The position numbers and the translations under genes are program-made. The notes beneath the pieces are model-generated. The model did not search any database and was not told the DNA's origin. It saw only the letters and a program-made list of their open reading frames with translations. Below, piece after piece: positions 1,108-58,012 of a stretch of DNA of 64,000 bases. The DNA is from Alphaproteobacteria bacterium. Lineage in GTDB: Bacteria > Pseudomonadota > Alphaproteobacteria > SMXQ01. The first letter of the stretch is position 1. The number at the start of each line of letters is the position of its first letter. The DNA is taken from NCBI GenBank assembly GCA_009380075.1, contig WHSO01000001.1:108266-172265 (forward strand), read 5' to 3'.

Positions 1108-2340
1108 TTATGCCGCGCTGTTCGAACGCGCTTCCGTGCTGCGTTCCCATTCGTAAATGTAATCGCGGCGTAGAGGCACCGCGTCCTGGCGCCGCGCCAT
1201 CTGCATCTGGAACACCATCTGCCCTTCGTTACGGAAGGAAAGCTCGGCGCCGGCGAGGTAAAACTCCCACATGCGGCAGAAGCGTTCGTCGTAGAGCGCT
1301 GCGACCTCACCCCGGTTGCCAGCGAAGCGCTCGCTCCAGGCACGCAGCGTTTCGGCGTAGTGGAGACGCAGGATCTCGATATCCGTCACGAACAGCCTGC
1401 TCCGCTCGACAACGGGCAACACCTCCGAAAGTGCGGGACAATAGCCGCCGGGGAAAATGTACTTGCGGATCCACGGATTGGTTGTGCCCGGCCCGTCGGA
1501 GCGGCCGATGGAATGAAGCAACGCGATGCCGTCATCGGCCAGGAGATCATGAATCTTCGCAAAGAAGTCCTTGAATTGCGGGACGCCGACATGTTCGAAC
1601 ATGCCGACCGAAACAATCCGGTCGAAGTTGCCGCCCTGGTTGCGATAGTCGCAGAGTTCGAAATTGACGCGGTCGGCGAGACCGGCCCGGCGGGCGCGCT
1701 CCCTTGCCACCTTAAGTTGCTCCTCCGACAAGGTGATGCCCGTCACGCGCGCACCCGTTTCGGCCGCGAGGTAGAGCCCCAGTCCTCCCCAGCCGCAGCC
1801 GATGTCGAGCACCCGGAGACCGGGCCGATTCATCAGGAGCTTGGCCGCGATGTGGCGCTTCTTGTCCTGCTGGGCCTCTTCCAGCGGCTGGCCCGGCTCG
1901 CGGAAATAGGCGCAGGAATACTGGCGGTCGGTGTCCAGAAAAAGGTCGTACAACTGCTCCGACAGGTCATAGTGATGAGCGACGTTCTTCTTGGACCTGC
2001 CGACCGGATTGAACTGCGCGAGCCACCGGAGCAGGATGAACAGGCGGTTGCTCGCCGCATAGGCCGGTATGTCAAGCAGGTGTTCGAGGTTGCGGGTGCA
2101 CACGTCGAGGAAGTCGTAAAGGGTGCCGTCCTCGATGGTGAGCGTGCCCTCCATGTAGGCTTCACCCACCGCCATGGTGGGGTTGACGACCAGGCGCCGG
2201 TGCAACACGGGATCGTGAAGGCGGATGGCGGCACGGGGACCGGGTACGCCGCTGTCGCATTCGTGCCGGCGACCGTGGGCGTCGATCACGGTCACCGCAC
2301 CCGAATGAAGGAAAGCCCTGAACAAACGCGCTAGCAACAT
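1108..2340 (-). CDS. cfa: Cyclopropane-fatty-acyl-phospholipid synthase, a SAM-dependent methyltransferase
   Basis: 410-aa ORF with the SAM-binding motif VLDIGCGWGGLGLY and overall CFA/mycolic-acid-synthase-family architecture (…YSCAYF…, …GMFEHVG…). Confidence 0.8.
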   Translation of the reverse strand: MLLARLFRAFLHSGAVTVIDAHGRRHECDSGVPGPRAAIRLHDPVLHRRLVVNPTMAVGEAYMEGTLTIEDGTLYDFLDVCTRNLEHLLDIPAYAASNRLFILLRWLAQFNPVGRSKKNVAHHYDLSEQLYDLFLDTDRQYSCAYFREPGQPLEEAQQDKKRHIAAKLLMNRPGLRVLDIGCGWGGLGLYLAAETGARVTGITLSEEQLKVARERARRAGLADRVNFELCDYRNQGGNFDRIVSVGMFEHVGVPQFKDFFAKIHDLLADDGIALLHSIGRSDGPGTTNPWIRKYIFPGGYCPALSEVLPVVERSRLFVTDIEILRLHYAETLRAWSERFAGNRGEVAALYDERFCRMWEFYLAGAELSFRNEGQMVFQMQMARRQDAVPLRRDYIYEWERSTEARSNSAA

Positions 2341-2393
2341 GGCAACCTCCCTCTAAGTCGCCCGGAACCGTGCGCCGGTCCGAAACTCCGATT

Positions 2394-2990
2394 CTATTCC
2401 GGTTCCGGCCGGTCCCCCGTCTCTTCCGTTTCCATCTCGGCGGCGGCTTCGGCGATTGCCGCTCGGGTTTCCGCGTCGGCGACGCGTTCCGCTTCACGGG
2501 ACTCGGTAATCAGTGACTTGCCCTGCGCCTGCAGCTCCGCTTCTTCCGGCGAGCGCGCGACATTGGCGGTGATCACCACGATCACCTCCGGGTGCAGGGC
2601 CACGCGCACGCGATGCATGCCGATGGACTTGATCGGATCGTTCAGGCGTACCTGGGAGCGGTCGACGGCGGTTCCCTTTTCGGCCAGCGCGTCGGCAATG
2701 TCCTTGGGGCGGACCGAGCCGTAAAGCTGGCCCGATTCGCTCGCCTGGCGGACGATGATGACGCTGACGCCATCGACATCCCTGGACAGGGTCTCCGCCA
2801 CGCCCCGCTTGGCCGCGTTGGCGGTTTCCAGTTCGATCCGCTTGGATTCGAAATAGTCGCGGTTTTCCTGAGTTGCGCGCAGCGCCTTTTTCTGCGGCAG
2901 GAGATAGTTGCGCGCGAATCCGGGCCTGACCTTGACTACGTCGCCCATATTTCCAAGATTCTCGATCCGCTCGAGGAGAATGAGGTCCAT
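2394..2990 (-). CDS. rplI: 50S ribosomal protein L9
   Basis: Begins MDLILLERIENLGNMGDVVKVRPGFARNYLLPQKKA, a typical L9 N-domain, and has an acidic C-terminal tail. The order rpsF-rpsR-membrane protein-rplI is conserved. Confidence 0.9.
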   Translation of the reverse strand: MDLILLERIENLGNMGDVVKVRPGFARNYLLPQKKALRATQENRDYFESKRIELETANAAKRGVAETLSRDVDGVSVIIVRQASESGQLYGSVRPKDIADALAEKGTAVDRSQVRLNDPIKSIGMHRVRVALHPEVIVVITANVARSPEEAELQAQGKSLITESREAERVADAETRAAIAEAAAEMETEETGDRPEPE

Positions 2991-3946
2991 TACTCGTTCC
3001 TTTCGTTACGCGAGCCCGGACCGGCAAACCTCTGCCGCAGCCCCGCCCAGTGTTCAACCATACCCAATCCGGCGACCACGATCAGGAGCCATCCGAACAA
3101 TAACAAAAGCAGGTACATGGCGATCAGGATCGCCAGCCTGCCGTTCCATCGACCCGAAATCGCATGTACCACCGCGAGTCCGGTCAGAAGGTACGGGACA
3201 CACAGGATCAGGGCGCCGTTTGTCGCCACGAACCCGAGCCATCCCGATCCTACCAGCGCCACTGCCGCCGCGGCAACTGCCACGGCCAGCAACCACGCCG
3301 GTGGTGCCACGGCAGCGAGGTCCGGGCTGGGCCGCAGGGAATGCCCGGTCCGGACCAGGAGCTTCTGCGCCAGGACCGCGTTGACCGCCATGATGATGAT
3401 CCACCACCCGACCACCAGCGACGGAATCACGCGCTTGAGGGTCGCCAAGACGCGCTCCGCCGCGGGATTGTCCTGGCCCGCTCCTGCCAGGGCTTGCCGG
3501 AAACCGTCGAGGAAGCTCGCGAGGCTCGCCTCCAGACCTTGCTCGCCCGAACCCAGCATCAATGCCAGCCCGACGAATGCGGCCGCCCCGTAGAGCGTGA
3601 GCCAGGCAAGCATGAGTCCCGGCGGATACCACTCCATTCCACCATCCGTCGTGGGGCGGTTGAGCAAGGCGAAACGGACCACACCGACGACAAGAACGGC
3701 ATCGGTAACGGCGTATAATCCTGCGCGGGGCCATCCTGCCGCAAATCCGACCGCGGTGGTGGCCGTGACGGCCGCGACCACCGCTGCCGTGAGGCCGAGG
3801 CCGAGGCCTACGGCAAACAGTGGTAACGGCGCGGCGAGGGCAAAGAACAGCGCACCAAGCAGGCTCCATTCGGTCGACAAATGGAGCACTGCGGACGATA
3901 GCCCGGCAGCAAGTGCGAATGGAACAAGCCTTGGCATGGCACGCAT
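2990..3946 (-). CDS. Polytopic inner-membrane protein of unknown function (DUF2232-like). The position between rpsR and rplI is conserved in Alphaproteobacteria.
   Basis: 318-aa ORF that is highly hydrophobic with multiple predicted TM helices. Its position within the rpsF-rpsR-rplI cluster is syntenic. The family assignment comes from context and memory, not a search. Confidence 0.55.
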   Translation of the reverse strand: MRAMPRLVPFALAAGLSSAVLHLSTEWSLLGALFFALAAPLPLFAVGLGLGLTAAVVAAVTATTAVGFAAGWPRAGLYAVTDAVLVVGVVRFALLNRPTTDGGMEWYPPGLMLAWLTLYGAAAFVGLALMLGSGEQGLEASLASFLDGFRQALAGAGQDNPAAERVLATLKRVIPSLVVGWWIIIMAVNAVLAQKLLVRTGHSLRPSPDLAAVAPPAWLLAVAVAAAAVALVGSGWLGFVATNGALILCVPYLLTGLAVVHAISGRWNGRLAILIAMYLLLLLFGWLLIVVAGLGMVEHWAGLRQRFAGPGSRNERNE

Positions 3947-3989
3947 CCCTGCTACCGGGTTTCAGCCGGCGGCTTTGGGGCAGGCCGAC

Positions 3990-4232
3990 TTACTGCATCA
4001 CGAAGGGAAGCAGCGCCAGGTGCCGGGCCCGCTTGATCGCCTGGGCCAGTTCCCGCTGCTTCTTGGTCGAAACGGCGGTGATACGGCTCGGCACGATCTT
4101 GCCGCGCTCCGAAATGAAGCGCTGAAGCAGGCGGATGTCCTTGTAATCGATCTTGGGCGCGTTCGCGGACGAGAACGGGCAGGTCTTGCGGCGCCGGAAA
4201 AAGGGACGGCGTGGTCCACCGGGGGCCATCAT
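3990..4232 (-). CDS. rpsR: 30S ribosomal protein S18
   Basis: 80 aa containing ...[51 protein letters not shown], the canonical S18 sequence. Confidence 0.92.
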
Positions 4233-48316: not shown

Positions 48317-49447
48317 TCACTCTTGGAAAGCAAGGGAAACTTGCCCTCCCGGGTGGCGCTGGAGCCGCCCGGCCAGCTCCAGCTCGAGCAGGACGAGGGC
48401 GATCTCACGGGCGGCTAAGCCGCTCTGGCGCACGATTTCGTCGATGCCGGCCGGTGCGGTGCCGAGCAGGTTTGAAATAATCTTGCGTACATGATCGGGT
48501 GCCTCGACCGGTTCCGCGAACCCGGCGGCGGACGGGGTCGGTCCCGCCTCTTCCGGCCGGGCGGCCGGGCGCGCCATGAGCCCGCCCAGGGCCTCGATCA
48601 CGTCGTCGGCGCCCTGGACCAGGGTGGCACCGTCGCGGATCAGGCCGTTGGTGCCGCGCGCCCGGGGATCGAGCGGGCTGCCCGGCACCGCCAGCACCTC
48701 GCGTCCCTGTTCGCCGGCGAGCCGCGCGGTGATCAGCGAGCCCGAGCGCAACGTCGCCTCGACCACCACCACCGCCTGCGCCAGGCCGGAAACGATGCGG
48801 TTGCGGTGGGGGAAGTGGCGGGCCGTGGGTTGCTGGCCCCAGGGCATTTCCGACAACACCGTGCCCGTGGCGGCGATGTCGCGGTAGAGCCGCTCGTTGT
48901 CGCGCGGGTAGACGACGTCGACGCCGCCGGCCATGACGGCGATGGTCCCGGTTGCCAGGGCGCCGCGATGGGCGGCGGCGTCGAGGCCGCGGGCGAGGCC
49001 GGAGGCGACGACGAACCCGGCCCGGCCGAGGTCGCGCGCCATCGCCTCGGCGAAACGGACGCCGTTGGCGGAGGCATTGCGGGCACCGACAATGGCGATG
49101 GTCCCGCGCGCCAGGAGTTCAGGCCGGCCGAGAACCGACAGGACCGCCGGGGCGTCGGGCAGGGCGGCCAGAGGCGCCGGATAGTCCGCCTCGCCGAGGA
49201 CGACGAGACGCCCGCCGGCGCGGGCCAGCGTGTCCACCTCCCGTTCGGCGGCGGTGCGCGGACAGACGCGGATGCCGCGGCGCAGGCCACCGAGGCGGGC
49301 GAGATCGGGCAAGGCATCGAGGGCGCTGCCGGCCGAGCCGAAGCGCGCGAGAAGCTGGCGGAAGGAGACCGGGCCGACGTGTTCCGATCGGATCAGGCGC
49401 AGCCGGTCGAGCCGTTCCGCATCGGTGATCGGATGTGCCTCGGCCAT
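48317..49447 (-). CDS. dprA: DNA-processing protein DprA (Smf)
   Basis: Rossmann-like DprA core (…TIAIVGARNASANGVRFAEAMARDLGRAGFVVASGLARGLDAAAHRGAL…) with a C-terminal winged-helix region. The start is at ATG 49447 (MAEAHPITDAER…). Confidence 0.85.
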   Translation of the reverse strand: MAEAHPITDAERLDRLRLIRSEHVGPVSFRQLLARFGSAGSALDALPDLARLGGLRRGIRVCPRTAAEREVDTLARAGGRLVVLGEADYPAPLAALPDAPAVLSVLGRPELLARGTIAIVGARNASANGVRFAEAMARDLGRAGFVVASGLARGLDAAAHRGALATGTIAVMAGGVDVVYPRDNERLYRDIAATGTVLSEMPWGQQPTARHFPHRNRIVSGLAQAVVVVEATLRSGSLITARLAGEQGREVLAVPGSPLDPRARGTNGLIRDGATLVQGADDVIEALGGLMARPAARPEEAGPTPSAAGFAEPVEAPDHVRKIISNLLGTAPAGIDEIVRQSGLAAREIALVLLELELAGRLQRHPGGQVSLAFQE

Positions 49448-49539
49448 GGCCGCAGCCTGCGGCAGCGTGCCCGCCCCGCATATATCCCCTTTACCTATGT
49501 AGCCTGACATGCCATATTAAGTCCATAGGAGGGCTGGAT

Positions 49540-50412
49540 ATGGCCAAGGCGATGACGATTTCTCAATTCTTTCAACGGTTTCCAGACGACGATGCGTGTC
49601 TTGATCACCTGATGAACGTCCGCTATGGCATGGAGGGCGATTGCCCCAAGTGCGGCAAGCACACGAACTGGTCCCGTATCCGCAAGGAGCCTGCCTACCA
49701 GTGCCAGTGGTGCGGCCATCATATTCATCCGATGGCCGGGACCCCCTTCCAGAACACCCGTACGCCGCTCCAGAAGTGGTTCTATGCCATGTTCATGTTC
49801 ACCACGACCCGGAACGGCGTGGCAGCCAAGGAATTGCAGAGGCAGCTTGGAGTGACCTACAAGTGCGCTTGGAGGATGGGCCACGAAATCCGCAAGTATC
49901 TCGCCTACGTTGACGGGGATGCCCCCTTGGGCGGTTCCGGGATCGTGGAAGCGGACAAGGCGTGGATCGGCGGCGTGGCCCCCAAGGAACGGCCCTACGA
50001 AAACAAGTCCATCGTCCTCGGCATGGTCGAACGTGGCGGCGAAGTGATTACCCGGATCGTCAATTCCCGCGCGATGGAAGTCGTCGTTCCCCACGTCCTC
50101 GAAAACGTCAAACCCGGCACCCGCGTCTATACCGATGAGTCCACCACGTTCATGCGCTTGAACGAGGAAGGCTACCGGCACGACTTCATTACCCATGCCG
50201 CCAAGGAATACGTTCGCGGTCCCGTTCATACCAACACCATCGAAGGCTTCTGGGCTGCCCTGAAACGCGGCATCAACGGGACGCACGTATGGGTTTCCAA
50301 GCAGCACCTGGACAAGTATCTCGGTGAGTTTGAATTCCGGTTCAATCTTCGGAAGTCCCCTCACTTGATGTTTGATCTTTTGCTGGCGGCTTTCCCGAGG
50401 CCATCCCGGTAA
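49540..50412 (+). CDS. IS1595-family transposase (N-terminal zinc finger plus DDE domain)
   Basis: RBS AGGAGGG 7 nt upstream of the ATG. Product begins MAKAMTISQFFQRFPDDDACLDHLMNVRYGMEGDCPKCGKHTNWSRIRKEPAYQCQWCGHH… and contains WKRAIN-type DDE core regions (…YTDESTTF…, …HTNTIEGFWAALKRGINGTH…). Confidence 0.85.
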   Translation: MAKAMTISQFFQRFPDDDACLDHLMNVRYGMEGDCPKCGKHTNWSRIRKEPAYQCQWCGHHIHPMAGTPFQNTRTPLQKWFYAMFMFTTTRNGVAAKELQRQLGVTYKCAWRMGHEIRKYLAYVDGDAPLGGSGIVEADKAWIGGVAPKERPYENKSIVLGMVERGGEVITRIVNSRAMEVVVPHVLENVKPGTRVYTDESTTFMRLNEEGYRHDFITHAAKEYVRGPVHTNTIEGFWAALKRGINGTHVWVSKQHLDKYLGEFEFRFNLRKSPHLMFDLLLAAFPRPSR

Positions 50413-50536
50413 GCAGTTTGTCGAAGCGGCGCGTTTCGGTTTTCGCCGGATGCTCCTTCGCAAACTCTTTCAGCTTCCCGAGCTTGCGGGCTTCTTCAAG
50501 GGAGAGGTATTTACCTTGCGCCATTTTGTGACTCAC
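50342..50536 (-). CDS. Hypothetical 64-aa passenger protein. Its 3' 71 nt are antisense to the transposase 3' end.
   Basis: MSHKMAQGKYLSLEEARKLGKLKEFAKEHPAKTETRRFDKLL… is a helical-looking N-terminal part and a low-complexity C-terminus. Its start overlaps the stop of the upstream 197-aa gene by 26 nt on the same strand. Only the first ~40 codons lie outside the transposase. Confidence 0.35.
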   Translation of the reverse strand: MSHKMAQGKYLSLEEARKLGKLKEFAKEHPAKTETRRFDKLLTGMASGKPPAKDQTSSEGTSED

Positions 50537-51104
50537 TCTTTTCCCAAATCTTTTCGTAGGAATTCCAAAGTTCAGAAAACGCTTCGGGGTGTCTGCTTCT
50601 AGAAATCCTTATAGATGGACGCCGATCTCTACGAGAAAACGGCATTGCTATTTCCAGATGTGCGAACGCGTTTTTCCCAGATGGGTCTGCAATCCACCAT
50701 GAATAGCCAATGAATTCACTGTACCATTTGACTTGAATGCCTTTCTCAATCGCCATTTGTGTCACTTCCCGTATTTGGTCACGGATTGACATGCCGTCCG
50801 GGAGCGAACTTTCAAAACATTTCAAAGATGCACTATCGGGATTCGGCAGTATCAGACGTTTTATTTTTTCAAGCTGTTCTCCGGATTGGAATTGTTTACG
50901 CCCTGCAACCCAAAAAACATGCGCTTCCGTAACTCGCCGCAATTCATCCGTGAGCGGGCGTATGCGATCAAGGCCGTGCCTATCTGGATAAAACTCAACT
51001 CCCGTAATACCTCGCCGCAGGGCCATCAGCAGCCACCATAGCCATCGGAACGGTAGCCACTCGAATATCGTCCGCCAGAATGCCTCGCCTTTTTCGCCCG
51101 ACAT
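50511..51104 (-). CDS. Hypothetical 197-aa membrane-anchored passenger protein of unknown function
   Basis: ATG at 51104 preceded by GGGGGAAAGAG. One N-terminal TM helix (WRTIFEWLPFRWLWWLLMAL), then a soluble domain of about 160 aa (…FYPDRHGLDRIRPLTDELRRVTEAHVFWVAGRK… and …GIQVKWYSEFIGYSWWIADPSGKNAFAHLEIAMPF…). I recognise no family for it. GC is about 48%, against about 66% for the genome. Confidence 0.55.
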   Translation of the reverse strand: MSGEKGEAFWRTIFEWLPFRWLWWLLMALRRGITGVEFYPDRHGLDRIRPLTDELRRVTEAHVFWVAGRKQFQSGEQLEKIKRLILPNPDSASLKCFESSLPDGMSIRDQIREVTQMAIEKGIQVKWYSEFIGYSWWIADPSGKNAFAHLEIAMPFSRRDRRPSIRISRSRHPEAFSELWNSYEKIWEKSESQNGAR

Positions 51105-51237
51105 GACTCTTTCCCCCACGCGCCCCATGCGCTACGGGCTAGATACCACCATCGGGGGCCTTTGTACATAGCCCAAGGGGATATATGCGGCCCGCCCTGT
51201 CAAGAACGAAAAGTGAACAGATGGGGCAGACGCGCCC

Positions 51238-55993: not shown

Positions 55994-56269
55994 AGGTTTA
56001 ACGCTCCTGACCGGGCGCTAGTTCATCACGGCCTGCGTGGCCGCGGGCGTGGATGCATACTGTCCCCTGATCACGACGACAGGGGCCCCTCGATGCCGAA
56101 GTCGTCATCGATCATGACGACGGGGTCCGCCGCCGCGCTCCACCATCCGCGATTCTGGCGAAGGTCATCGCATTGCAGTGTGACAGGAGGCCGCAACGAT
56201 TCGGGACAGATGGATGACAGATGGGGGAAGCCGGTGCTGGCCCGGTCGCGCCGCTCTCGGTCTTTTGTT

Positions 56270-56303
56270 GATATACAGTCAGATGAAGAAATTTCTGTAT
56301 ATC
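56270..56303. promoter_or_regulatory. Perfect 9-bp inverted repeat with a 16-nt spacer in the leader of the PilZ-methyltransferase gene
   Basis: GATATACAG-tcagatgaagaaattt-CTGTATATC lies in an AT-rich segment about 250 bp upstream of the 56552 start. Confidence 0.5.
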
Positions 56304-56551
56304 ATTAAAATAACATGATTTTTGGCTTCAACCATGGGTCGGTATGATCGTCCACAGTGACCTCTCGGCGCGCATACCCGTACTGCGTTTTTTCCAACTG
56401 CAAAAGCGGCGCCCTATTGGGTATTCTGAATATCGTTACAACAATTCCCGGCACAAAATTTGGCGTGGTGCATAAAGACCTTGGAATTTGACCCATTTAA
56501 TGCCTACGGTTAACAAAAGGTTAGCGTCACAAGTTTAGAGAGAACCTGACC

Positions 56552-58012
56552 ATGAAGACTTACGAGGACTTAACCGGCGCCGCCGGTCGCAAGGTTTTTT
56601 ATCGTGCGGAACGGTTTGCTGCGGCGGACCTGTTTCGCCGTCGGCCCCCGGCGGCGATCATCGACGGCGTTCACTACGAGCTGGAAAACCTCAGCATGAC
56701 GGGACTGGCTGCCCGCGCGCCGGCCGGGGAGGCGTGGCGCGGCGACGTTGGCTCCGACGTATCCGTCTGGCTTCAGCAGGGTAACGCCCCGCTGTTCGAG
56801 GGCGCGGGAAACGTCCGGCGCGTCGAACCCGCCGGCCGTCATTCGCGCATTGCGCTCAGCTTCAAGGGCGCGCCGTTATCGATTCCCGATCTCGTCTCCC
56901 GCCACAACGAGAATCAGTTGCTGGTTCAGCTCAACGGGGGACTTGGTCATTTGCGCGGCGAGGTACCGCCGGAATACCGGCGTCACTGCGCCGACGTGTT
57001 GCATCTCCTGCGCGGCTATCGTTCCGCGCTGAAGGATGTCGACAGCACCGCGGCGTCGAACGGAAGCCTGCCCGACACCGACCGCGTTGCCACGCTTTAC
57101 AGGATGGCCGAGGAACGCATGCTTCCCGAGTGGCGGCAGCTCTGGCATGAAGGGAACGCCCTTGTCCGTCCGTTGATGAGCGATGCGGCGCGGCTGATCC
57201 CGGTCAAGCAGTTCACCGAGAGCGTGCTGACGCCGGAGTTCATGGCGGGGGCAATCTGGAATCGCAGCTACCGCAAGCCGCTCGGCTATCCCGGCGACTA
57301 CGCCATGATGAATTACGTCTACGAATGGCAGCCCGTCGGCGATACGATCTACGAGCGGCTCATGCACCGTATCGGCCTTGACGTCGCGGAATGCATCGCG
57401 ACCCGGATGGTCATGGTGCAGGAGGCCATCGCCGAAACCGTCGCCACCCGGGCCGAAGGGGACACCGCGCGGGTCCTGAGCCTCGGCTGCGGACCGGCCC
57501 AGGAGGTCGCCAATTTCCTGCGCGCCCCCGCCCTGACGGCGCCGGTGGCCTTTACGCTCGTGGACCAGGACTGCCATGCGCTCGGTCACGCCTATGAGCG
57601 GGTCTACCGCGAGGTCGTGCGCCACAACAACCGCTCGACCGTCGAGTGTCTCCAGGCGTCGTTCGCGCAGCTCATGCGGGCGTCGGCGCTTTTCGCCGCC
57701 CTGCCGCCCCAGGATCTCATATACAGCGTCGGGCTTCTCGACTACCTGTCCATGCGGCGGGTACAGGAGCTCGTCCGCGCGCTGTTCGAAAAGGTGGCCC
57801 CCGGTGGGCAGCTCATCATCGGCAACATGGCCGACGTGGCCGGCGGCAACCAGTGGCCGATGGAATTCATCTGCGACTGGACGTTGCACTACCGCAGCGA
57901 GGCGGAGATGCACGACATGGCGGCGCTGGTTTCCGGGGCGACGATGACGCTGCGTCCCGATCCGACCGGAAGGGTTTACCTGCTGTATATCACCAAGCCC
58001 GGCGCGGCCTGA
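56552..58012 (+). CDS. Two-domain protein: N-terminal PilZ-like domain fused to a C-terminal class I SAM-dependent methyltransferase
   Basis: N-terminal residues 25-100 carry FRRRPP, then ...NLSMTG... and ...GNVRRVEPAGRHSRIALSF. These resemble the PilZ RxxxR / (D/N)xSxxG / G-x-V-R motifs. The C-terminal part carries methyltransferase motif I ARVLSLGCGPAQEV, post-I TLVDQD, motif II DLIYSVGLLDYLS and motif III VAPGGQLIIGN. Confidence 0.6.
   Translation: MKTYEDLTGAAGRKVFYRAERFAAADLFRRRPPAAIIDGVHYELENLSMTGLAARAPAGEAWRGDVGSDVSVWLQQGNAPLFEGAGNVRRVEPAGRHSRIALSFKGAPLSIPDLVSRHNENQLLVQLNGGLGHLRGEVPPEYRRHCADVLHLLRGYRSALKDVDSTAASNGSLPDTDRVATLYRMAEERMLPEWRQLWHEGNALVRPLMSDAARLIPVKQFTESVLTPEFMAGAIWNRSYRKPLGYPGDYAMMNYVYEWQPVGDTIYERLMHRIGLDVAECIATRMVMVQEAIAETVATRAEGDTARVLSLGCGPAQEVANFLRAPALTAPVAFTLVDQDCHALGHAYERVYREVVRHNNRSTVECLQASFAQLMRASALFAALPPQDLIYSVGLLDYLSMRRVQELVRALFEKVAPGGQLIIGNMADVAGGNQWPMEFICDWTLHYRSEAEMHDMAALVSGATMTLRPDPTGRVYLLYITKPGAA

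Follow-up and report, generated by a model that had tools for sequence, protein, structure and literature searches.

A probable IS1595-family transporter insertion sequence with a conserved small gene and a replaceable cargo slot

Of the mobile units with genes besides that of a transposase, transporter insertion sequences are the smallest. Those of the IS1595 family were reportedly described by Siguier, Gagnevin and Chandler in 2009, and ISfinder is said to hold a group of the type 'ISNwi1 with passenger genes'. Outside antibiotic resistance, the function of their cargo and its exchange are largely unexplored. A transporter IS (tIS) is defined by passenger genes that are unrelated to transposition and lie inside the terminal inverted repeats (IRs) (10.1101/2021.05.26.445724).

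The window analysed here, a 64,000-nucleotide stretch of alphaproteobacterial DNA, contains an element of 1713 bp with three genes, encoding a transposase, a small protein of 60 aa and a cargo protein of 197 aa (Table 1). It shares with other IS1595-family tIS a transposase with a zinc ribbon and a DDE domain, short IRs, an 8-bp target site duplication (TSD) and extra genes inside the IRs, and it belongs to this known kind of element. Relatives are found mostly in Alphaproteobacteria, and also in Gammaproteobacteria, Nitrospirales, Opitutales and others; Sulfitobacter sp. W027 is one cultured carrier of the small gene. The clade joins three features: an overlooked conserved small gene, a never-empty slot with a turnover much above that of the backbone, and a strong bias towards membrane-anchored proteins.

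Boundaries, composition and movement of the element

That positions 49477–51189 have the anatomy of one complete IS1595-family tIS is very likely, and we regard the structural core of this reading, in which the element is probably mobile, as likely. The transposase matches the Pfam models DDE_Tnp_IS1595 (PF12762, 2.7e-36) and Zn_ribbon_IS1595 (PF12760, 2.5e-08), as well as the NCBIfam model transpos_IS1595 (NF033547, 4.1e-52, 177 bits with a cutoff of 75). The IR pattern has two matches within the window, where none is expected by chance, and the left IR agrees with the clade consensus cGCGATTATCCCCTTGACGTATGTA. The IR end of the clade, GGCGATTAT..., presumably corresponds to the similar ISNwi1-group consensus 'ggnnatTAT' in ISfinder. 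A TSD of 8 bp is typical for IS1595-family elements. The unit combines the zinc ribbon and the IS1595-type DDE domain of the family with terminal IRs and an 8-bp TSD around it, and between the small gene and the IR it carries a passenger gene that is not a transposition gene, that of the 197-aa protein with its phospholipase D (PLD)-type fold.

An initial annotation of this DNA had placed both small ORFs in DNA of foreign GC content on an IS. This is borne out, as the GC content is 0.46–0.54 over positions 50200–51199 compared to about 0.70–0.76 in the flanks, and the IRs and TSD bracket the transposase and both ORFs. A promoter and terminator scan found no sigma-70-like promoter in the element, and terminator-like sites occurred in it at the chance rate only.

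Table 1. Features of the element, in window coordinates
Feature	Position	Strand	Remarks
Left TSD copy	49469..49476		8 bp, GCCCGCCC; identical to 51190-51197
Left terminal IR, transposase end	49477..49501	+	25 nt, CGCATATATCCCCTTTACCTATGTA
IS1595-family transposase gene	49540..50412	+	290 aa; N-terminal zinc ribbon and DDE domain
Backbone small gene	50342..50524	-	60 aa from the probable ATG at 50524; conserved core residues 1-41
Cargo gene	50511..51104	-	197 aa; weak anchor ~9-29, predicted HKD-less PLD-fold domain ~33-190
Right terminal IR, cargo end	51165..51189	-	25 nt, minus-strand CGCATATATCCCCTTGGGCTATGTA
Right TSD copy	51190..51197		8 bp, GCCCGCCC; read from sequence

Judged on its relatives, the three-gene unit moves as a whole. 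Perfect 8-bp TSDs surround it in about 20 of 39 relatives. Furthermore, one MAG holds four copies (L076 and L078–L080) with identical positions of the small-ORF and transposase matches and terminal repeats spanning 1600–1606 bp, and the TSDs of L076 and L079 differ.

The small gene of the IS backbone

A mechanical ORF list gives the small gene as 50342..50536 on the minus strand, with a GTG start and 64 aa. All homologues start with MA(R/Q)GKYLSLEEA, so that the true start is probably the ATG at 50524 rather than the GTG at 50536. The overlap of 26 nt with the stop of the 197-aa gene, as initially annotated, is correct for the GTG start and shrinks to 14 nt with the ATG. At its other end the ORF overlaps the transposase gene in antisense by 71 nt, from the transposase stop at 50410–50412 to the ORF end at 50342, as had been noted. 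The suspicion raised against the last ~23 codons also proved well placed. Conservation is confined to residues 1–41, almost wholly outside the transposase overlap, and the recurring ...TSED ending arises from a conserved motif of the transposase, NLRK(S/R)P, read in antisense.

The small protein has 181 homologue clusters, compared to 7 for the cargo protein. The homologues are about 45–87% identical to the protein of the window and share an invariant core, LSLEEA..F..H. Of 80 loci, nearly all have a convergent transposase gene of the IS1595 family that overlaps the 3' end of the small gene, mostly at a near-constant offset, and on its other side the small gene adjoins at least 49 unrelated upstream gene clusters. 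The survey was seeded on the small gene, and its counts cover only those elements of the clade that carry it. The small gene is part of the IS backbone, since it travels with the transposase beside many unrelated upstream genes; it is neither cargo nor a specific partner of the 197-aa gene.

This bears on the initial annotation, in which the two ORFs formed a coupled toxin/antitoxin-like or small defence module. Both are real conserved genes, and relatives of the pair are indeed co-located elsewhere (L001/L002, L038, L064, L089 and L096). The constant companion of the small gene is, however, the transposase and not the 197-aa gene, and with dozens of unrelated genes upstream of it the module reading falls. 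A self-contained toxin/antitoxin-like or defence pair riding on the IS, with a membrane or HEPN-like toxin and a small antitoxin or regulator, is in our judgement quite improbable. It would account for the shared strand, the overlap with stop/start coupling and the co-located relatives, a small protein that is basic and helical might bind DNA as antitoxins do, and toxin/antitoxin pairs are reported as integral parts of some transposons, namely of the Tn3 family (PMC7157771). A protein antitoxin is nevertheless expected to co-vary with its toxin, whereas this gene keeps about 45–87% identity beside all those unrelated neighbours. Its linkage is to the transposase, and a near-isogenic relative (L006) has swapped the cargo and kept the small gene. 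Moreover, the Rx4H motif of the 197-aa protein is unconserved, its modelled fold is not that of HEPN, and matches to Pfam, toxin/antitoxin families and PADLOC are absent. A classic type II pair was rejected, as the partners do not co-vary and neither protein is in a toxin/antitoxin family.

The codon-position entropies of the small gene are 0.57, 0.45 and 1.34 for positions 1, 2 and 3. The far higher variation at the third position indicates selection at the protein level. Invariant Ser and Leu residues are encoded from non-adjacent codon families, and at all loci surveyed the reading frame is uninterrupted and begins with ATG or GTG. These observations, together with the location of the conserved part outside the transposase overlap, leave very little credence for an untranslated ORF that is incidental to a conserved feature of the DNA or RNA, for instance an antisense RNA or a site bound by the transposase. 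Such a feature would fit with the overlap with the transposase 3' end and with a gene that apparently was not called in the source assembly, that has no 100% identical protein among the homologue-search matches, and that has a distant homologue left without annotation on a RefSeq plasmid.

A tblastn search with the consensus small protein gave no matches in plasmids, and no PDB sequence was significantly similar to a profile of the family. Three short helices are seen in the AF2 model (pLDDT 72). A ribbon-helix-helix fold was considered solely on account of an extended N-terminus followed by helices; no support for it was found, and it is no more than speculation.

The cargo slot and the 197-aa protein

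The stretch between the cargo-end IR and the small gene is a replaceable slot, the cargo of which is exchanged between elements. It is never empty in the 54 IR-bounded elements seeded on the small gene, and 52 of them have a same-strand ORF ending −34 to +33 nt from the small-gene ATG. One gene, rarely two, makes up the content. BLAST groups the 70 slot ORFs into 49 clusters, and pairs of elements with backbones 80–90% identical at the nucleotide level have no detectable cargo DNA in common. L006 exemplifies this. Its flanks are 95.6–96.1% identical to the window and its IS lies at the same dprA-plsY site as the window copy, but inverted and with unrelated cargo. The transposase and small gene of the two are 90% identical at the nucleotide level over window positions 49477–50526, and the homology ends about 2 nt upstream of the small-gene ATG. 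In-place inversion of one ancestral insertion was rejected as an origin of this pair: the TSDs differ, and the IS backbones are 90% identical compared to 96% for the host flanks.

The slot encodes a TM-predicted protein in 49 of the 54 elements, as counted with a simple hydropathy window and no matched control set. An N-terminal TM module is common to proteins with different C-terminal domains (L002 and L064 versus L052_u0). The variable domains include coiled coils and beta-rich domains, and the positive residues that come after the helices suggest that these domains are cytoplasmic. Among 60 slot proteins there is one PADLOC match, the cargo of L082, which matches the candidate family PDC-S42 over its full length (E 1.7e-57); this family is unvalidated.

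One reading of these data, which we consider unlikely, is that the slot proteins are fast-evolving factors directed at the element itself, namely sensors or regulators tethered to the membrane, which would act with the small protein to tune transposition or to localise it. The never-empty slot, the fixed gene order and small-gene junction, and the shared architecture of an N-terminal TM segment and a variable domain despite sequence diversity would all be consistent with this, as would the top structural match of the window cargo domain, the ligand-binding regulator domain of TrmB. Yet BLAST shows no relationship among the variable domains, PDC-S42, coiled coils and beta-rich domains are hard to square with one mechanistic role, and the PLD-like family of the window cargo also occurs away from IS1595 elements (L094 and L095).

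The cargo gene of the window is listed mechanically as 50511..51128 on the minus strand (205 aa). Translation from an internal ATG at 51104 yields 197 aa, and the good Shine-Dalgarno sequence in front of this ATG, GGGGGAAAGAGTC, is in agreement with the ribosome binding site initially annotated. The 197-aa protein, like the small protein, gave nothing usable in Pfam, NCBIfam, PADLOC or PHROGs, and it is as unassignable to a described family as it had first appeared. Neither a tblastn search of plasmid and phage collections nor a scan of viral contigs matched it, and a profile search with the cargo family against PDB sequences gave nothing significant. A single N-terminal TM helix had been proposed. 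A hydrophobic, W-rich stretch is present, and homologues have one or two clear TM helices there. In the window protein itself, the stretch contains an internal Arg, stays below the Kyte-Doolittle threshold and is modelled at a pLDDT of about 50; its membrane anchor is marginal.

Model-based comparison gives the domain the alpha/beta fold of the PLD/Nuc type. The stretch RVTEAH (R57–H62), once pointed to as resembling a HEPN motif, is present, but relatives have K or S in place of R57 and Y, N or E in place of H62. Rx4H is unconserved in a 32-sequence domain alignment and the predicted fold is alpha/beta instead of all-alpha, and a HEPN ribonuclease was rejected on both counts.

The catalytic HxKx4D (HKD) motif of PLD enzymes is missing. 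The consensus of the family at the equivalent strand, GWx(H/Q)xExxLP, lacks the Lys, its His is variable, and no Pfam PLDc match to the protein was found at E≤1. Having lost HxK...D and retained (H/Q)xE, the domain, as modelled, most likely serves to bind a ligand or macromolecule and does not cleave phosphodiesters. We consider it very improbable that the protein is an active nuclease or phospholipase of the PLD family, like Nuc, NucT or Zucchini, that degrades nucleic acid or lipid, perhaps as an effector of exclusion or of a restriction-like process; an active PLD nuclease was rejected for lack of the HKD motif.

The family has a conserved signature of its own (FFPxR, LILPxP, RW, HxE and RPS), and with about 740 clusters and no model in Pfam this HKD-less PLD-fold domain can be defined as a new domain family. 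A narrower domain alignment retrieved relatives from 5 metagenome loci. In a PADLOC scan of 110 PLD-like relatives, 109 had no match and one matched, being fused to a TIR effector. Rare family members carry deaminase or nucleoside-deoxyribosyltransferase domains.

Proposed working of the element and comparison with known systems

In the working that we propose, the transposase would move the whole unit. The cargo gene and the small gene, on the same strand and with stop/start overlap, are probably co-transcribed and translationally coupled. The small protein, basic and helical, may regulate the element or serve it as an accessory factor, and transcription of the cargo-small-gene operon could dampen transposase expression by convergent transcription. 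Across the clade the slot almost always holds a single gene, for a protein in which one or two membrane helices at the N-terminus are joined to a highly variable domain. The selective value of such cargo may lie in phage or mobile-element exclusion, or in a function of the abortive-infection type, that pays for carriage of the IS. This function of the cargo is our leading guess; it is weakly supported, and we rate it as possible rather than probable. The PDC-S42 match of the L082 cargo, the TIR fusion, and the deaminase or nucleoside-deoxyribosyltransferase domains of rare family members are hints of defence, whereas the near absence of PADLOC matches and the lack of matches in the phage and plasmid collections and the viral contigs speak against it.

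Taken to its full extent, the proposal is that this widespread IS1595 clade is a miniature cassette carrier. A backbone of the transposase and a previously unannotated protein of 50–77 aa would hold an obligatory, fast-exchanged slot for membrane-tethered proteins whose cytoplasmic domains are hypervariable and which would be single-gene effectors of phage or mobile-element exclusion, similar to abortive infection. The HKD-less PLD domain of the window would be one new sensor family, and through the small protein the expression of the cargo would be tied to repression of the transposase. As a whole this is tentative and somewhat doubtful. If the cargo does serve defence or exclusion, elements of 1.6–3 kb would offer new single-gene systems in compact form and a simple model of how an IS pays for its carriage.

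The PLD/Nuc superfamily also includes non-catalytic members, such as the C-terminal sugar-binding domain of TrmB and the DUF1669 of FAM83. The domain of the 197-aa protein differs from this superfamily in having its own signature and no HKD motif, and it is without sequence-level relationship to the Pfam models of PLD or TrmB or to any PDB chain. Furthermore, it follows an N-terminal membrane anchor, whereas TrmB and FAM83 have a DNA-binding or kinase-docking context in this place. The small two-gene arrangement beside transposition genes, inside a transposable element, is like that reported for the type II toxin/antitoxin genes of Tn3-family transposons (PMC7157771). Unlike those, the small protein of the window does not co-vary with its upstream partner, and neither protein matches a toxin/antitoxin family.

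Variable slots are also known from integron cassettes and from the defence hotspots of P2/P4-like prophages and satellites. The slot of this clade differs from them in that it holds one gene, rarely two, and no integrase or attC-like sites were found. The clade shares with them a conserved backbone with a fixed site for the exchange of unrelated genes, which is much faster than the divergence of the backbone. Among tIS, a conserved convergent 60-aa backbone gene next to an always-filled slot, mostly for TM proteins, may be an arrangement not described before.

The inserted element and its surroundings

The gene order in this region is topA, dprA, an IS1595 transposase, two ORFs, plsY, pyrC and pyrB according to the ORF list, and the GC content is 46–54% compared with about 70–76% in the genome. 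Both reading frames are real, as judged by the ORF list and the sequence, and the proposal in the initial annotation that they ride on an IS is confirmed. A pair of terminal inverted repeats (IRs) and an 8-bp direct repeat, the target-site duplication (TSD), enclose the transposase together with both ORFs, showing that the three genes form one inserted element of 1713 bp. A scan of the window found a single copy. The end of its IR resembles the consensus of the ISNwi1 group, to which the element may belong. The 197-aa protein has an exact match recorded as hypothetical protein GEU76_00755 from an Alphaproteobacteria MAG.

Features of the inserted element (window coordinates)
Feature	Position	Strand	Basis or remark
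197-aa ORF	50511-51104	minus	ORF list and sequence; GGGGGAAAGAGTC upstream of ATG
64-aa ORF (mechanical call)	50342-50536	minus	GTG start; ORF list and sequence
IS1595 transposase	49540-50412	plus	IS1595 zinc ribbon and DDE domain
25-nt inverted repeat pair	49477-49501 and 51165-51189		Chance expectation: none
8-bp direct repeat GCCCGCCC (TSD)	49469-76 and 51190-97		Sequence

The mechanically called dprA ORF (48317-49510, minus strand) has its ATG within the left end of the IS. Comparison with L006, the corresponding locus of a near-isogenic relative, and sequence conservation suggest that the true start is MAEAH... around 49447, which would place the IS ~30 nt upstream of dprA, parting dprA-topA from plsY. 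The IS may alter the expression of these genes, or provide an outward promoter. A second patch of low GC (0.48, compared with about 0.65–0.70 nearby) was observed at 56200-56600, flanked by one ORF that ends near 56308 and another that starts at 56552; its sole ORF encodes 63 aa (56305-56496, minus strand).

In L006 the flanking dprA and plsY are 95.6% and 96.1% identical to those of the window, and an IS of the same type is found at the identical intergenic position in the opposite orientation. Its TSD, CGCGACCC, spans the end of an adjoining second IS1595 element of another kind, apparently with ACCCTGTC as its own TSD. These two window-type insertions have unlike TSDs, and identity is lower between their IS backbones than between the host flanks; the insertions in the window and L006 are therefore, on the sequences compared (window 49450-49476 and 51190-51215; L006 2860-2900, 4090-4110 and 6040-6060), independent events within about 12 bp. 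Two near-isogenic genomes contain three independent IS1595-family insertions within about 12 bp at the plsY-dprA intergenic point. Independent insertions this close together may reflect a local hotspot, or targeting of IS ends. A hairpin with a 7-bp stem, GCCGCAGCCTGCGGC, is located right beside the insertion site (49450-49464).

The second element of L006 (2956-4100) has a transposase of 279 aa, with just 34% identity to that of the window, and after it a co-directional 93-aa ORF, whereas the window-type layout is convergent. Its IRs (CGCGATTATATACTTGACAC...) resemble those of L002-type elements.

The small gene and the IS backbone

A homologue search among 5.8 billion proteins recovered 181 clusters for the small protein and only 7 for the 197-aa protein. 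All homologues of the small protein have the N-terminus MA(R/Q)GKYLSLEEARK, and the gene therefore probably starts here at ATG 50524, encoding 60 aa and overlapping the upstream stop by 14 nt. Residues 1–41 are conserved, with LSLEEA, F21 and H25 invariant. The tail varies in length, giving homologues of about 50 to 77 aa (with one outlier of 99 aa), and is the portion that overlaps the transposase; its recurrent end ...TSED corresponds to the conserved transposase motif NLRK(S/R)P read in antisense.

Among 74 distinct loci, selected by a back-translated GKYLSLEEA pattern, the entropies at the three codon positions of codons 1–17 are 0.57, 0.45 and 1.34. Furthermore, the Ser and Leu codons alternate between codon families. 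Together these patterns show that selection acts on the small protein itself.

One genome per GTDB species was scanned, yielding 80 small-gene loci. Nearly all loci with enough sequence have a convergent IS1595 transposase overlapping the 3' end of the small ORF and 49–66% identical to that of the window, and in most of them the transposase ends about 115–170 nt past the start of the small ORF. Judged by this context, the small ORF is part of the IS backbone.

The AF2 model of the small protein (pLDDT 72) has an extended N-terminus, helices at residues 9–15, 18–24 and 31–43, and a disordered tail. No PDB match was found by fold or profile. The conserved part is basic, and a role as a DNA-binding or transposase-binding regulator is plausible. 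The location of the small gene directly behind the cargo gene and antisense into the transposase gene suggests that transcription of the cargo operon would interfere with transposase expression. A promoter scan detected no sigma-70-like promoter in the element.

A variable slot between the IR and the small gene

Pairing of IRs (consensus cGCGATTATCCCCTTGACGTATGTA) succeeded for 54 elements, whose sizes are about 1.6–3.2 kb. Of the 39 elements examined for TSDs, about 20 have perfect 8-bp ones, mostly AT-rich, around the entire unit of three genes, and one MAG holds four like copies of 1600–1606 bp (L076, L078-L080), with different TSDs at L076 and L079. By these sequence signatures the three-gene unit transposes as a whole.

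The slot, here holding the 197-aa gene, was never empty: at least 553 nt separate the cargo-end IR from the small gene, and all but two of the 54 elements have a same-strand slot ORF ending -34 to +33 nt from the small-gene ATG. Lengths of the deepest slot ORF range over 93–427 aa, with a median of 221 aa. The commonest single arrangement is the 14-nt overlap (window 50511-50524), which explains why many slot proteins, that of the window included, end in G(A/T)R, unrelated ones among them (L009, L013, L018, L023, L030, L049 and others). Reading the conserved small-gene start (ATGGCNCGNGGNAAATA) in the +1 frame gives the last four codons of these proteins, so that the junction between cargo and backbone is nucleotide-exact in about a sixth of the elements.

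The cargo itself is diverse, with 70 slot ORFs falling into 49 BLAST clusters and essentially no Pfam annotation among them. A slot protein with predicted TM helices is present in 49 of 54 elements, nearly always with 1–2 helices near the N-terminus; basic residues after the helices suggest that the variable domain is cytoplasmic, topology being read from a simple hydropathy scan and the sequences. Backbone pairs 80–90% identical over about 1050 nt have no detectable cargo DNA similarity, and one N-terminal TM module is common to proteins with unlike C-terminal domains (L002/L064 compared with L052_u0), which argues from sequence that turnover of the slot, by exchange and in part by shuffling, far outpaces divergence of the backbone. 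The slot also gathers nested insertions. L006 gives the decisive comparison: it has the same transposase and small gene, at 90% DNA identity (window 49477-50526, L006 6048-4999), and in its slot two ORFs unrelated to the cargo of the window, one of 100 aa and one of 155 aa with two TM helices; homology to the window breaks about 2 nt upstream of the small-gene ATG and restarts only in the 26–29-nt IR.

The same layout is found on plasmid NZ_CP083567.1 of the cultured Sulfitobacter sp. W027 (L098), where the slot encodes a 196-aa TM/coiled-coil hypothetical protein. The small ORF (3153-3323, minus strand), which lacks RefSeq annotation, encodes a distant homologue (MTNLKKARKGKIEEFIKEHEADPDGDLDKLDALIKRP...) and overlaps the 3' end of the annotated IS1595 transposase. 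In a MAG with five related copies, an extra transposase-like ORF of about 320 aa is located in or beside the slot gene (L024, about 1940-2926; L025, about 2153-3172), its protein matching the transposase of the window at only 23–24% identity, and a comparably weak match lies nearby in a third copy (L021).

The 197-aa cargo protein and comparison with known systems

Relatives with 30–36% identity to the 197-aa protein are encoded in the same order of slot gene, small gene and convergent IS1595 transposase (L001/L002, L038, L064, L096), and one short contig carries cargo and small gene (L089). Co-location of the pair elsewhere, without which the initial annotation would have had its module idea fail, is thus observed, but it follows from the shared IS backbone. 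Some other relatives (L091, L093 and the context of P0281) adjoin IS1595 transposases that are likewise convergent and more distantly related, and some family members are found outside IS1595 elements in mobile contexts, where the neighbouring gene encodes an IS4/IS66 transposase or a resolvase.

When 1.84 billion cluster representatives were searched with a profile, 741 proteins matched at E≤1e-3, 481 of them at E≤1e-10. There is no Pfam model for the domain, nor did the profile search find a relative among PDB sequences; by its sequence matches, this is a sizeable, uncharacterised domain family. Among the best 150 of the 741 proteins, about half have 1–2 N-terminal TM helices and about a quarter have C-terminal extensions.

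When the AF2 model (pLDDT 74, pTM 0.70; N-terminal 30 residues poorly modelled) was compared with viral models using Foldseek, PLD-like and NucT-like proteins ranked first. The PLD catalytic motif HKD is absent from the family in the alignment of relatives, which has the signature FFPxR ... G ... LILPxP ... RW ... GWx(H/Q)xExxLP ... RPS, in which E151 hardly varies and the His does. We conclude that the domain has a non-canonical PLD fold that is probably non-hydrolytic and would be comparable to the TrmB domain, which binds ligands, or to that of the pseudo-enzyme FAM83. The HEPN-like stretch RVTEAH (R57-H62) noted earlier is unconserved in relatives and the fold is alpha/beta, ruling out HEPN.

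In L082, the gene at 3042-3992, immediately ahead of the small ORF, matches the PADLOC phage-defence candidate PDC-S42 over its full length (E 1.7e-57), the only such match among 60 slot proteins; no experimental validation of PDC-S42 was found in the literature. The same slot also holds a second gene, encoding a TM-anchored protein of 188 aa. A TIR effector domain is present in one of 110 PLD-like relatives, and deaminase or deoxyribosyltransferase domains in a few. PADLOC gave no defence-model match for either window protein. Rapid turnover, a membrane anchor with a variable cytoplasmic domain and carriage by a selfish element would fit, without proving, a role of the cargo in exclusion or abortive infection.

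Instead of the two-gene toxin/antitoxin or defence module originally proposed, the element is a three-gene transporter IS (tIS) in which the transposase is accompanied by a conserved small gene of the backbone and by an exchangeable cargo gene, here encoding an HKD-less PLD-fold protein. By definition (10.1101/2021.05.26.445724), a tIS is an IS with passenger genes, and such elements are reported from two families, IS1595 and IS66 (also Siguier 2009, as cited in later literature). The element of the window agrees with a tIS in every structural feature tested, and it shows two regularities that are possibly undescribed, a small gene that belongs to the core and an obligatory slot biased towards TM proteins.
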